A stretch of 45,692 nucleotides of DNA from a virus (Duplodnaviria; Heunggongvirae; Uroviricota; Caudoviricetes), in the IMG/VR virus record IMGVR_UViG_2651869695_000008. One strand, given 5' to 3'. Positions 24,501 to 30,500 of the stretch are shown piece after piece. How positions within the stretch are numbered: the stretch's first letter is position 1; the number at the start of each line of letters is the position of its first letter. The position numbers are program-made.

Positions 24501-27500
24501 ATTTCATATTCTTTCTTAAACTGCGGTTTGTAATATCCTGTCAGAAATGAAAAAAGCCAGAAATATGCCACAAAAGCAATCATCACAATCTCAAAAAAAT
24601 GTTTTTTTATAAATGGCTTATCATAGAAGCATGATACCGATAAAAATCGCCCATAAGATCTTATCGAAATTGTAACCGCCAGCGCAATCGCTGCTGACAG
24701 TAGCAAAAGAGGTACCTGAATCTTCTGTCTCAATATAGAAAACTCAATAATTGCCGGCACAAACAATAATTCCACAGCAAAATAAAGGCGAAATACATTT
24801 AGCTCTTGCATAGAATGTTTTCTTTTCACTGCGAAAAAGAATACAACACCAATACCCCAACCGATAAGAAATATAGCAATGACGATAACTGCAAAAAATA
24901 AACTTCTGGCAACATCATCAACACCTGCACCTACAATCCACCATGGGAAGCCGTAGTAAAAAGAAGTACCCCATCCATAGAAATAAGCACTCCCCCATCC
25001 AAGGCATCCCATGTAGGCAATAAAAAGTGAAGAACTCCTGAGCAGCGCACCATCCTTCATAACCACCCCAATACAAGATGATAACATTGGCTTACAACTC
25101 ATAACAAAAGCAATTCAATGCAGTCAAGAGGTTACAGGCTAAAAAAACTCTATTACATTGCAGTCAGCATGTTTACTACACAAATACAATTCAGAGCATA
25201 AAAACTACTCGGCGGCAGGTTATTGAGACTCATCAATGACATGTAAAAAACGCCCATTATTGGTGTCAAGTTTCCCCAAAGTTATTCAAAAAGTCAATAT
25301 TATGCCGTTAATATGTTGCCATCCGTGGCAATCATGGCGCTAACGTGTGATCGCATTCAAAATGTTGTCTGCGATTGACTCTTCCTTGTGGCATTGCACA
25401 ACCAGAGCGTCATACAGCGGCTTAACAGTGCGTGACCAGGTGGGTTGGGTAAGGTTTGGGATTAGCATCGTTACAGCGCGATATGCGGCGCTTGCTGGCA
25501 TCCTTGAATAGCCGACGCCTTTGCATCTTACGCACTCTTTCTCAGCAACTATCCCCCACTGCTCTGTTTTGGCTATATCAACCGCACGGCCTGTACCGTG
25601 GCAATCTCTGCATCTTGCGCCCGGCGTAGCGGCACTACGGCAATAATCCGCATAAGCGAATGTTGCGAGCACTTGCAGTACCTTTGCCTTAGTATTTCCT
25701 TCAAGCTTTGCCACGCCACGGTATTTCCCCGATACCTTGTGTGCAAATTGCATCAGATAGTTGATAGCCTTTTGTTTGTCGTTCTGGCTGAGTTCGTGCT
25801 TACCGCAGAATGCAGCCATTCCGAATCCGGCTTGTGATTGCGCCATCCCCATAGCAGCCATCACATCAGTACCGGAAAGAGAGTCAGAAGCCGTAGCCCG
25901 TGGTGAGTCGCTCATCATCGGGCTTTTTGGCGAATGAAATTTAGCTACGCTTTCGAGTCTCATGCGCCTTCTCCCTGTACCTGAATCAATGTGAGATTTC
26001 CGCAGAACACTGCGCCGGTATCGATATACATCTGGTTGGCAAATTTGAGTGGTTTCACTGCTTGCGTATGACCAAAGATGAACGTGTCCGCGCCTTTGAT
26101 TTCTTTCACGATCCCGTCTTGTGAGTTGCTGATTCGTTCGCGGTTCCAGATTACCTGCTGATGATCAACTGGCTTTCCAAACTCGTATTTATCACAAGGA
26201 TAATCGGCGTGGCAGATGACATATTTTTTTCCTTTACTCACCAGTTCGATGATTAACGGAAGTTCATCTGCTTTATGGGCAAGAGCTTTAGCCAGAATTT
26301 CTTTGTCGTAATCGAGATTAAAGAACCAGCCACCGCCATTAAGCAGCCAGTGATTGACGTTTCCACGCTCTGATAAGCCATCAATCATCATTTGCTCATG
26401 GTTTCCACGTACAGCTCTGAACCAGGGGAATGTGATTAATTCCAGGCATTCTACGTTCTCTGTACCGCGATCAACCAAATCGCCCACCGAGATAAGCAGG
26501 TCTTTTTTGGTGTCGAATCCTATCGTCTCCAGTTTTTTCATCAGGTTCGTGTAGCATCCGTGCAGATCGCCAACTACCCAAATATTTCGGTATTTGCTGC
26601 CATCAATTCTTTCGTAGATATTCATGCAACCTCACTTCTGCTGTTTCGCAGTTTTTTAAGTTTCTGTTGATACTCCGCCTTGATGGCCCTGCACTCTTCG
26701 ACAGTCCAGCGATAGCGGTTATGGTTTGATTCGATTTCCTCTACTGCTACCTGCCCGATGCGGCTAATCAGTTCGACGCGATACGGAACGAGATTTCCGC
26801 TTTTGTGCTGGTTGCACACCACGCATTGCTTGTGAATATTGCGTTCATCAAATCGGAGTTGAGGTGCCGCAGCAGTTGTCCGGTAATGTCCGGCATCCCA
26901 CTGAGCAGACGTGAGCGTTCCGCACGAGATACATGGTAAGTCGCGGTCTCTTTCTCTGATGAAGGCGTTTACGGCTTGTTGGGCTTGTTTAATCCAGTAA
27001 CTGCGGGGCTTTAAGGCGAGTTTTCGAATCTTAAGTTTATCTTTCTGTTTCTGCTCCTCTCGTCGTCGTTTCTTCTCTGCTGCTTTTTCCGCTTTTTCGC
27101 GTTCTTTACTTCGTCGTTCGAGTGCTATCTTGGTTCCACAAATCTCATTACACCAATATTGATTTTGATATTTTGGTATAAACCATTCATTGCAACATTT
27201 ACATTTCCTTCGATAGATTCGCATAAGTGCTCCTTTCGTTGCCGGAAAAATCACCGTAATACTTATCTCGGGCTTCTTCAGCAACTAGTACCGCTAACTC
27301 CAGATCATCAAAGCATCCGAAGTGTTTACTCTTGCCATGGAATCCTAGCCTAACATTCCATTTTTTCTGTCGTTTGTGCCAAGTAACCCCTCTGCAACCT
27401 GATTTGCTATTCTTTCGGATCCTTATATTTCTTGAATTTTCTATTGGCAGGCATTCTCTTAAATTTTCTGGCCTATTGTCGGTCCTAATTCCATTAACGT

Positions 27501-30500
27501 GGTCAATTTGACCAGCAGGCCAACGATTATGAGTTATGTAAAAAACTAAGACGTGAGTTTTATATCTACGCCCATCTATCATGATCATTGAATAACCGTT
27601 GGAATCAAAAGTTCCAGCAACACTATTTAATGCTATCCTTCCCTGAGTGGGAACTTTCCATCTAAATACCCCGGTAGATTTATCGAAACTTAGTAACTCA
27701 AATATCCTTTTAACAGTTAAATCTTCTCTTTTACGGTTACATCGTCTTCGCGCTGGTTTAGCCATCGCCTTCTTCCTCCGTAATGGTTTTCTGAATTTGG
27801 CCACCTGAACAGAGCTCACCAAAGCTATGGATGTCGGTATTTCCACAATACCAAGATGGCGAAAATAACTGCATGATAAGCCTCAGGGAAAAGGGAAGAC
27901 ACTACCCCCGATAATTCAGAAACAAATCGAAATACATGAACTAAAGAAAAATCACAACAAATAGAAATAGAAATAGAAATAGAAATAGAAATAGAAATAG
28001 AAATAGAAATAGAAATAGAAATAGAAATATTAAAACAGACCACCACATTCCTGATGTCATACTCACTAAACAATTTTTCGACAACATGGTAGCTCATAGC
28101 ACGTTATCGTGTAGACACCCTCTGCTACGTATTCGGTGTTCAGTGCAATATCTACAAATACTGGAAAAATCTAAAATCGAGGCAAGTTTTTAGTGATAAC
28201 TATAGTTAGACTATATTGACGACCTGATGTGCTGTATGTAATAACTAACAAAAAATATTTTCCATGGGATTTTTTATTTTAATGAAATGCAAAATATTTT
28301 TATCAATAGTTAGTATTATGGAAAACCATTAATTCAGGAGGAAACTTGATTCCAAATTCAACTTCAAATAAAGGTTATGTATGCATTGACATGCAGTGTT
28401 CGTCAACCTCTGAACCAACAGCTTCTACCTCCAGCAACCGGAGTATTAAATTAGCCGCTTCCACAAATGTATATCCGATAACAAGAAACGACTCCGAGCT
28501 CACTCTGAACGATTTTCTTGATAATAGCTCTTCTACGTCATCATTGGACTACATTAATGAATTGGGTTCTCAACTGACGTTAAATGATTTTCTTGACAAC
28601 ATAAAGACAAATGAGGTGGATAGAACATGTACGGATGTGGTAATTAATATCCCACAAGAGATACAAACAAATACACAGGAAAATGATTTGTTATTATCCG
28701 ATAAAAATAATTCAATATGCATTGAAATCGATGAAAGAATTACAAAAATCCTAACATGCAAGCAAAAATATCAACTAGACAGCATCATTCATGAAATTAT
28801 ACCAAAAGAGAATGAGAGTGCAGAAACTGTTCTCCATCTTATGAGAGTTCTGAACGATCAATATCATCAGGTATATAATCAGTCAGGATGTTTTTATAAA
28901 GCCTATATGGCCATACACAATAAAATCGAACAGATACTTCCATATGCGTTCAGAGCCGGAGGCGGAATCAGCATTCACTTGCTCATACAGGCATTATTTT
29001 TTAATGGCGACTATAACAAATCACCTTCACAGTCTCAACAACCATCTTTATATACATCACCTTCTCCAACAATAAATACAGAAGCATTCTTAAGTAATGT
29101 ATTATCACTAGATATAACCCAGGTACGCATACTTGGTGATTTACTATCAGCAACTTTATTTCATGCACCAACAATATTCTATCAATATCCTAAACTAATA
29201 GATGAAGTTAAGTATTGTATAAGTAATAAAAAAATAACAGGTTCGGTTATAGCACGATTTACTCTATGTTTAACAAGTACATTACTAACCATGTCACCAC
29301 TGTTAATGCTTAATGGAGCAGTTAAAACAGGTAGCATAGTAAGAACTATAGGTAGGGGAGTGAGTTATGCTGATATACCATTGGCCTTAGCTATATTAGG
29401 TGACTCATGGTATAAAGCTTATAAACATGGTTCTTCTGATAACCCAAATTCTGCTCAGAGATTTATATCGCAAGAAGCGGCCTTTAAAACCACCCAGCGG
29501 GTATTAACACAAGGATTAAGTCTGATGTCCTCTTTATCGGGAGCAATCATGCGCTCTCTTGAGAAAGGCACACCACCACAAATGATGTCTTTATTCATCG
29601 TAAACATACTAAATCTATTATTTCATCAAAATCCATATGAAGGGGCATCAGCAAGTGCTAATGCTTTGAAAAGATCAACTTACTCCCATAATCCGGACAT
29701 ACTAAATACTCAGGCAATAGCTCTTTGTGTTGACCTCCAGCATACAAAAAATATAACCATGCCACTTTTCAAAACAAAAGACAGGATATCTTACGCATTC
29801 AATGGACAAAGAACATCCCCAGAAGACCAAAAACAAATACTGAAAGAAGTTATAAACTCCTGTACCCAAGGAGAAAGAGCCATTTTAAATACATCACAAT
29901 CAGAAACATGCAAACATAAAATCGATGAGATTTATGAAAAAAGATTCTCAGAAACAGAACTAAATACATTACCAAACGAAATGAAAAATTTCTTGATATT
30001 TTTGAACAAAACTCATGAGAAAGATATTTCGCGTTTAAGCATTGGTAACGAAGTTAATGAAAAAATAATTGCAGTTATAGTCAAGACGTTAGCATATAGA
30101 GAGTCTATGTTGTGTTAGACTTTAACTCTACATTGATATAACATTAGCCAAATATTCAACAGTGTATGCGACCAAACACCAACATGTCGCATACATATAC
30201 AATTTGAATATTTAATTATATTTACTTAATGTATTTCTATAAAAGCAAATTACAAACTCACAACAAAAAACCTCATAACACATTAACAATCAATTCTTTT
30301 CATCTTTATAAATTCTCATATCAGGCTTGCACCCGATAAACCGACGAAAACTATTTAAAACCCATCGAGTGAAGTAATCTCTAAAACCAAAGAAATACCA
30401 AGTGAAAATATTCACGATAAAATGCCCGGTCAAAGCCCCTCCTGTACCGCATGCAAGAACAGTAAAAAATCAGATGTTTTCATAAATATCAGTCCTCATC

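Follow-up and report, generated by a model that had tools for sequence, protein, structure and literature searches.

An HNH endonuclease gene and a foreign 5′ end within ninG

The window analyzed here is the whole 45,692-nucleotide (nt) stretch of IMG/VR virus record IMGVR_UViG_2651869695_000008, a lambdoid prophage in reverse orientation whose relevant genes all lie on the minus strand. Its ninG (rap) gene carries, within the 5′ end, a gene for an HNH endonuclease with a predicted AP2-type DNA-binding domain. Followed along the direction of transcription, the region runs from a 590-amino-acid (590-aa) open reading frame (ORF) on the opposite strand through a hexanucleotide repeat to the HNH ORF, ninG, a gene for a NinI-type phosphatase, and the Q antiterminator gene (Table 1). 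The insertion was defined against phage lambda and 81 other endonuclease-free alleles, which we call empty, as opposed to the filled alleles that carry the HNH gene. Such an alignment had been proposed by the original prediction, a reading of this DNA from its sequence, and it resolves the locus into an exact exchange in which a foreign cassette of 596 nt (27736..27141) stands in place of 64 nt of lambda-type ninG. The central claim of that prediction, that an HNH-AP2 gene of the homing family sits within the 5′ end of ninG, is upheld: the site is discrete, and uninterrupted alleles with the same flanks exist. The limits it had given were 26622 and 27846, of which the first, the end of ninG, stands. 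The second has to be given up, as 27846 marks the GTG with which the longest mechanically called ORF begins, the conserved start is the ATG at 27765, and the extension up to 27846 is absent where ninF stands upstream.

Searched with BLAST against lambda (J02459), the window gives two collinear blocks that flank the cassette. The left block (window 27778..27737, lambda 42419..42460) spans the ninF stop, the ninG ribosome-binding site, and the first 32 nt of ninG, with 40 of 42 nt identical, and the right block (window 27140..26622, lambda 42525..43043) is 97.1% identical. The 49 nt up to the left junction are 100% identical in 18 endonuclease-free IMG/VR loci, and homology to a Salmonella prophage (L009) begins at 27782. 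MAKPARRRC, the residues with which the HNH protein begins, are thus the native NinG N-terminus, as had been suggested; chance resemblance was considered as an alternative and is ruled out by the identity to lambda and by the identical 49-mers. The lambda-type sequence removed by the swap comprises about codons 11–32 of ninG, with the Cys-rich N-terminal motif, and the cassette brings in the HNH gene from about codon 2 on together with the ribosome-binding site, ATG, and 28 codons of a foreign ninG. The HNH ORF is in frame with the ninG ribosome-binding site and the first 10 codons of ninG, and its own start is lost; as judged from these reading frames, the endonuclease gene is shown to be translated from the ninG initiation signals.

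At the other end of the cassette, ninG restarts 26 nt before the HNH stop codon with a new Met and its own AAGGAG (27235..27230), again as originally read. The prediction had also described the first 30 or so residues of NinG as diverged and the rest as lambda-like, which agrees with 28 codons of about 53–56% DNA identity to lambda (27224..27141) followed by the 97.1%-identical body. Divergence of the ninG 5′ end in situ is ruled out by its 44–47% DNA divergence and 29% guanine-plus-cytosine (GC) content beside 97%-identical flanks. The 3′ end of the cassette is shown by the reading frame to join the resident ninG body in frame, which restores a full-length NinG ORF. That ninG is kept complete as an ORF, as had been claimed, is seen in the match of the restarted product to Pfam NinG (PF05766; 281 bits, 6e-84), which covers profile positions 5–192 of 193, and in the retention of the N-terminal Cys positions: C8, C11, W14, F15, W24, and C25 all fall in columns that are invariant in comparison with the NinG proteins of lambda, Emek, and ES18. 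No NCBIfam model matched either NinG or the HNH protein, and in the literature searched we found no assay of the hybrid NinG N-terminus.

The HNH part of the cassette has a GC content of 39% and the foreign ninG 5′ end one of 28.6%; the ninG body stands at 48.9%, and the ninG 5′ end of lambda itself at 49.5%. Because both parts of the cassette differ in this way from the ninG body, and because the HNH protein has no relative above 47% identity outside its own tight cluster among 5.8 billion proteins, we regard the cassette as foreign. An imperfect 20-nt direct repeat lies across the left junction at 27707..27747 (AGACGATGTAA/CCGTAAAAG then AGAAGATTTAACTGTTAAAAG on the minus strand), with an 80% match and a Tandem Repeats Finder score of 52, barely above threshold; it may be due to chance, or it may preserve microhomology through which the first illegitimate joint was made.

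An identical 567-nt coding sequence is annotated ‘HNH endonuclease’ in RefSeq (WP_001108084.1) and likewise in GenBank. Residues 68–107 match Pfam HNH_3 (PF13392) with 42.7 bits against a cut-off of 24.8 (4e-11), and the protein matches PHROG 99, ‘HNH endonuclease’, at 1.4e-71. An alignment of 15 sequences has D88, H89, N101, and N110 as invariant columns, and the window protein keeps all four. The match to Pfam AP2 (PF00847), at residues 123–171, reaches 22.2 bits (E = 1.8e-4), below the cut-off of 33.3. The AlphaFold model of the HNH protein (predicted local distance difference test score, pLDDT, of 87.8) has strands at 127–130, 135–142, and 145–152 and a helix at 155–173 in this region, which Foldseek matches to the AP2 domain of AtERF1 (1gcc; root-mean-square deviation 1.3 Å over 51 columns, template-modeling (TM) score to target 0.67) and to those of WRI1 and TEM1 (7wq5, 7et5). 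As modeled, the product has the known HNH-AP2 architecture, with the AP2 fold recovered even though the Pfam AP2 score lies below its cut-off. The best fold match of the model in the PDB is I-HmuI (1u3e), at a probability of 1.00 but with a weak E-value (1.2e-2) and a weak TM-score (about 0.4), and a PDB sequence search with the HNH protein returned a weak AP2 (WRI1) match only. By tblastn, over 3,000 phage records contain relatives at 25–42% identity, frequently more than one in a genome, and many of these relatives are annotated as homing endonucleases.

The two ends of the protein are set apart from the rest. In alignment, its relatives start near the fusion point and end about nine residues before the window ORF does, and the HNH tail that is encoded in the 26-nt overlap has no counterpart in them. 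Model confidence is low at both termini, with a mean pLDDT of 65 over residues 1–10 and values below 50 for residues 180–188, a disordered C-terminal tail. A captured start and read-through into the leader of the foreign ninG would fit both the alignment of the protein ends and the low terminal pLDDT.

Around the cassette, the AT-rich 590-aa ORF, on the strand opposite to the early-right operon, occupies the position that ninF has in other phages, and pR transcripts bound for ninG and Q must traverse it antisense; searches of Pfam and NCBIfam with it gave no match. Matches to the hexanucleotide repeat region in E. coli O157:H7 and related genomes begin 58, 72, 78, 84, 90, or 108 nt into the query. 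Because copy number differs between strains, most steps being 6 nt or multiples of it, we take the repeat to be a variable-number tandem repeat, and ORFs of 90 and 48 aa that span it look like repeat artefacts. The window is without ninH, and the stop codon of ninG and the start codon of the NinI-type phosphatase gene share the ATGA at 26622..26625. In lambda, ninH lies between ninG and ninI, and other copies of the cassette precede ninH or different genes. A scan of 26500..28500 for promoters and terminators found nothing relevant to the cassette above shuffled expectation.

Table 1. Features of the cassette and its surroundings, in window positions.
Feature	Position	Strand	Basis or remarks
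HNH-AP2 endonuclease ORF	27199..27765	-	ATG 27765..27763 behind GGAGG; TAA 27201..27199; 188 aa; begins MAKPARRRC
HNH (His-Me finger) catalytic core, residues 68–107	27445..27564	-	Pfam HNH_3
AP2-type DNA-binding domain (predicted), residues 123–171	27253..27399	-	Sub-threshold Pfam match and AlphaFold model
Restarted ninG	26622..27224	-	ATG 27224; TGA at 26622; 200 aa
AAGGAG ribosome-binding site of restarted ninG	27230..27235	-	Within the HNH ORF 3′ end, 5 nt before the ATG
HNH/ninG overlap	27199..27224	-	26 nt
Lambda-type island, left homology arm	27737..27782	-	Last ~6 codons of ninF and stop, GGAGG, native ninG ATG and 29 nt (MAKPARRRC + AA)
Foreign cassette	27141..27736	-	596 nt in place of 64 nt of ninG (lambda 42461..42524)
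Foreign ninG 5′ end	27141..27224	-	28 codons (84 nt); homologous to the NinG N-terminal Cys-rich region
Lambda-type ninG body, right homology arm	26622..27140	-	Codons 29–200 and stop; 97.1% identity to lambda
NinI-type phosphatase	25960..26625	-	ORF list
Q antiterminator	25340..25963	-	ORF list
590-aa ORF	28346..30118	+	34.7% GC; PHROG 9230, a family without known function
Perfect tandem hexanucleotide repeat, (AAATAG) x 11.8	27959..28029	+	Between the 590-aa ORF and the HNH gene

Filled and empty alleles in E. coli and Salmonella

The cassette is present in 531–535 of 5,426 complete E. coli genomes (about 10%), and roughly 500 further complete E. coli genomes have empty-type matches only, which break exactly at 27737 and 27140 among the matches listed. 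It is carried by the Stx1 phages SH2026Stx1 and AU6Stx1 and by E. coli O157:H7, O111, and O145 strains, and it also occurs in a P22-like prophage of a chromosome labeled Salmonella Infantis by its source. The junctions are identical in all copies, in E. coli and in Salmonella alike, which shows that the cassette arose once. Among 62 filled loci, the upstream context is the side of the 590-aa ORF in 40 and ninF, with at least three alleles, in 22, and the downstream contexts fall into at least five classes. The filled locus L010, which has a ninF context, matches the empty locus L124 at 98.4% identity along 1,225 nt on the upstream side and at 98.0% along 2,016 nt on the downstream side, and the two differ at ninG by the exact swap of 596 for 64 nt; a second pair, L045 and L097, shows the same. 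Of about 40 NinG N-terminal types, the one encoded by the foreign ninG 5′ end is the most aberrant, and this 5′ end was never seen without the HNH gene, whether in the 531 E. coli genomes, in 62 IMG/VR and other loci, or in four phage records.

Damaged copies of the cassette or its ninG were also seen. One locus (L017, 3797..4564) has a 768-nt insertion in ninG with a 9-nt duplication, IS1-like by size only, and in another (L154, 2744..3972) the foreign ninG 5′ end is interrupted by an element of the IS2 family. The HNH ORF of L067 is frameshifted by the loss of 1 nt, and in one E. coli genome the HNH protein (P0003) is truncated to 104 aa.

Variation was compared in 55 clean filled loci, from which those with insertion sequences were left out. 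In the cassette, 25 of 596 sites segregate (nucleotide diversity, pi, 0.40%), against 100 of 519 in the adjoining ninG body of the same loci (pi 3.3%; Fisher p = 6e-16 for segregating sites). Diversity is thus 8-fold lower in the cassette, it jumps at the right junction, and the foreign 84-nt ninG 5′ end has two segregating sites in the 55 copies. Filled ninG bodies are interspersed among the 82 empty alleles, with one haplotype common to both, and two sites close to the right junction, 9 and 33 nt away, are polymorphic in both classes. Outside the cassette, no fixed difference separates filled from empty alleles on either side within about 1 kb. As judged from this variation, the cassette is shown to be much younger than its host ninG alleles and to have been placed into many nin-region backgrounds in E. 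coli and Salmonella. The original prediction had spoken of co-converted flanks, and this can be kept for one side; it does not hold in the sense of a graded tract, for what accompanies the cassette is an invariant 84-nt foreign 5′ end that travels with it.

The HNH ORF itself is intact in 60 of 61 copies, with 13 synonymous and 12 non-synonymous variants, and the ratio of non-synonymous to synonymous polymorphism per site (pN/pS) is 0.25. By this measure the ORF is under purifying selection. The 64 nt that the cassette replaces, which encode the Cys-rich N-terminus, are almost invariant among 81 lambda-type alleles.

Probable homing and its alternatives

Taken together, these observations make it probable that the cassette is a free-standing HNH-AP2 homing endonuclease gene (HEG) of the ‘intronless homing’ type known from the T4 Seg and Mob enzymes, lodged in the 5′ end of ninG. 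Since nothing other than the exchange of the cassette for 64 nt of ninG consistently separates filled from empty alleles, a target close to the gene must involve those 64 nt and would therefore be removed by the insertion, as had been predicted; the replaced 64 nt of lambda-type ninG are probably the target of the enzyme. Homing enzymes usually exploit sequence that, like these almost invariant 64 nt, is conserved and critical for function. On infection or induction, transcription of the delayed-early operon would yield the enzyme, which would nick or cut a lambda-type ninG that has no endonuclease gene, the most probable place being inside or spanning the 64 nt missing from filled alleles. 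Phage recombination of the Red, RecET, or Erf type, or that of the host, would then repair the break with the filled allele as template. Pairing would use, on the left, the start of ninG with the adjoining end of ninF, which in the window comes down to 46 nt, and on the right the ninG body, and repair would copy the HEG together with a cleavage-resistant ninG 5′ end.

Several points weigh against this interpretation. The left arm that the window has in common with ordinary lambdoid phages is only about 46 nt long, which is short for RecA and within the range of Red-type recombination. Phages that lack the endonuclease also have a hypervariable ninG 5′ segment; the endonuclease-free lambda, Emek, and ES18 types differ by 32–44% there, so that divergence of the NinG N-terminus is not in itself diagnostic. 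A synthetic empty allele, made up of the 590-aa-ORF side, the lambda 64 nt, and the ninG body, found no empty allele behind the 590-aa-ORF context in the 5,426 E. coli genomes: its best matches were all two-piece, that is, filled, and the ninG-proximal side of the 590-aa ORF (about 27750–27950) is joined only to the HNH cassette in complete E. coli genomes. Low diversity in the cassette between diverse flanks would also be expected of a young insertion moved by ordinary homologous recombination alone. With 40 of 62 loci and most E. coli matches sharing one upstream context, in a few lineages of the enterohaemorrhagic E. coli (EHEC) type, much of the prevalence of the cassette may be clonal. 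As to the target, free-standing HEGs of T-even phages can cleave hundreds to thousands of base pairs from their own gene (PMC2988022), so that it need not be the replaced 64 nt.

Searches for a donor lineage with the protein, with a 28-mer, and in genome collections did not find one, which is a further point on the same side. Against 5.8 billion proteins, the HNH protein falls in one tight cluster and otherwise has matches of at most 47% identity, and its nearest relatives (P0004, P0005, P0007, and P0008) have genomic contexts other than ninG. A 40-aa query of the foreign NinG N-terminus brought back nothing beyond incomplete copies of this one allele. Among 185,579 species-representative genomes, none contained an exact match to a 28-mer from the foreign ninG 5′ end, and the HNH protein had only a 39% relative, in Planctomycetota.

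Much of this would be accounted for if the cassette were a passive mosaic module with a single illegitimate origin, spread by general homologous recombination and by clonal expansion of EHEC-type lineages, whose HNH protein drives no transfer and may be inactive or do something unrelated. The identical junctions of all copies agree with the single origin, most copies share one upstream context in related pathogenic lineages, lambdoid nin regions are highly mosaic anyway and have variable downstream contexts, and low diversity is expected for a young insertion that has no homologue in empty alleles. We nevertheless hold such passive spread to be unlikely. It sits poorly with purifying selection on the HNH ORF (pN/pS 0.25; 60/61 intact) and with intact catalytic residues, with the occurrence of the cassette in two genera, downstream of no fewer than three ninF alleles, and with exchange points as near as 9 nt to the junction, and with relatives of the HNH gene that are typical phage HEGs.

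A role as a competition or exclusion nuclease, in which damage to co-infecting or co-resident phages with a lambda-type ninG 5′ end would be the main function and copying a by-product, overlaps with homing and shares its anatomy; the two differ only in the effect that is selected for. Free-standing HEGs are known to cause marker exclusion, both in T4 against T2 and in the HMU phages of Bacillus subtilis (PMC2988022), and E. coli genomes often hold several ninG prophages (a median of 2, and up to 6–8 matching places). Filled and empty-type ninG matches coexist in one chromosome (2–4 places in many filled records, counted whatever the N-terminal type of the second copies), which would speak against efficient killing of co-residents; the observations fit exclusion and homing alike, and we consider exclusion as the main role very unlikely. 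Least credible of all, and scarcely worth retaining, is a working phage part rather than a selfish gene, packaging-associated like the HK97-type terminase HNH protein or a recombination accessory that partners NinG/Rap: the HNH gene does adjoin and translationally overlap a recombination nuclease gene, and some HNH genes do genuinely belong to lambdoid recombination modules (PMC12315714), but this one is dispensable (the same nin region lacks it in about 500 E. coli genomes and 81 IMG/VR loci), its family is HNH_3 plus AP2 with I-HmuI as best fold match, members of the family occupy other sporadic nin-region sites, one of them splitting ninF, and its place in the nin region, with the 590-aa ORF on one side and ninG-ninI-Q on the other, is not beside terminase or portal genes, where HK97 gp74-type genes stand, but 6–7 kb from the large ORFs of a presumed packaging region at about 18.6–21.0 kb.

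The wider nin region and comparison with known systems

Hypervariability of ninG is confined to its start. Over the first 100 nt or so, at least four sequence types (lambda, Emek, ES18, and that of the cassette) are 56–68% identical to each other, the adjoining ninG body is 89–97% identical, and the switch comes at about the codon of the cassette’s right junction (types were taken from L001 for lambda, L151 for Emek, and L152 for ES18, and the roughly 40 N-terminal types from L071–L310). Other genes of the family lie nearby in other phages. In L122 (760..1511), L118, and L143, a 168-aa HNH gene, about 40% identical to relatives in the HNH-AP2 family, sits 60 nt upstream, inside ninF. There the first 50 or so NinF residues are fused to a new tail and the last 20 or so end an ORF just upstream of an uninterrupted lambda-type ninG; ninF is not restored. 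Three HNH genes lie within a single nin region in the prophage L010 of E. coli strain Br_190_kylling, the extra two at 943..1554 and 2259..2786. The HNH gene between ninB and a methyltransferase gene, whose product is 41% identical to the window enzyme and has the same C-terminal DLELA.LVA.EA motif, is missing from the near-isogenic L124 and is thus a second filled/empty polymorphism.

Because HNH-AP2 genes of this family are sporadic across nin regions, one could go further and suppose that HEGs repeatedly invaded, that targets escaped and the HEGs were lost again, and that this traffic produced the hypervariable start of ninG and, more generally, set the boundaries of the lambdoid early-right mosaic, with the window cassette as one invasion in progress. 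We put this forward as a speculation that is quite unlikely to hold. Lambdoid mosaicism is usually ascribed to generic recombination, and to our knowledge homing endonucleases, well studied in virulent phages such as T4, T5, and SPO1, have hardly been studied in temperate lambdoid phages. The cassette offers a compact, testable case in the phage family that is best understood: its site is defined, 64 nt make up a candidate target, filled and empty alleles with identical flanks occur naturally, and the biochemistry of the host gene, ninG/rap, is known. If active, the enzyme would give prophages that share a pathogenic E. coli cell a directed route for passing DNA to one another when induced. 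The arrangement would also be a harmless way for a selfish gene to enter an ORF, by taking over the start signals of the host gene and bringing a spare host 5′ end.

Among characterized enzymes, the HNH-AP2 endonucleases of phages, cyanobacteria, and ciliates have the same order of Pfam domains, HNH and then AP2; the window protein differs in an AP2 score below the Pfam cut-off and in having nearest sequence relatives of at most 47% identity. Enzymes of this kind were reportedly proposed by Magnani et al. in 2004 as the source of the plant AP2/ERF domains. I-HmuI, the HNH nicking homing endonuclease of Bacillus phage SPO1, has a similarly elongated, modular architecture with a separate C-terminal DNA-binding module, and 109 columns of its structure align with the N-terminal and HNH part of our model at 18% identity and a TM-score of about 0.4. 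It is, however, intron-encoded, and its C-terminal module is a helix-turn-helix where the window protein has an AP2 domain.

The closest functional parallels are SegF, SegG, and MobE of T-even phages, which carry out intronless homing with localized marker exclusion (PMC2988022, PMC2790892). These too are stand-alone genes between or within conserved phage genes, polymorphic for presence and absence and inherited together with a diverged neighboring segment, and MobE is of the HNH class like the window enzyme. The window element differs from them in residing in temperate lambdoid prophages of E. coli and Salmonella and not in virulent phages, in lying inside its target ORF and borrowing the start codon, in having a diverged flank of a fixed 84 nt where theirs is a variable conversion tract, and in being known from sequence alone.

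Capture of a host start has a precedent in the P22-like phage epsilon34, in which an HNH HEG captured the start and N-terminal codons of a resident gene in frame (PMC2629481). That HEG lies in the early-left operon, in another host gene, and belongs to another HNH lineage with relatives in phages of Gram-positive bacteria, and no replacement 5′ end restoring the host gene is described for it (PMC2629481). Insertion inside a conserved phage coding region, with host function apparently kept, is likewise known from gene-splitting HEGs, such as mobE in nrdA of Aeromonas phage Aeh1, mobA in the T4 topoisomerase, and the HEG in nrdD of FelixO1-like phages (PMC2988022, PMC4837284). In those cases the host protein becomes two polypeptides that reassemble, whereas here the HEG takes over a 10-codon remnant and the foreign 5′ end makes NinG a complete single chain again. 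A full-text literature search returned no description of the ninG insertion or of its population behavior. What is distinctive about the cassette, relative to all of these systems, is the combination of a position inside an ORF of a temperate phage, use of the host gene’s start, and a fixed foreign 5′ end that restores the single-chain host protein.

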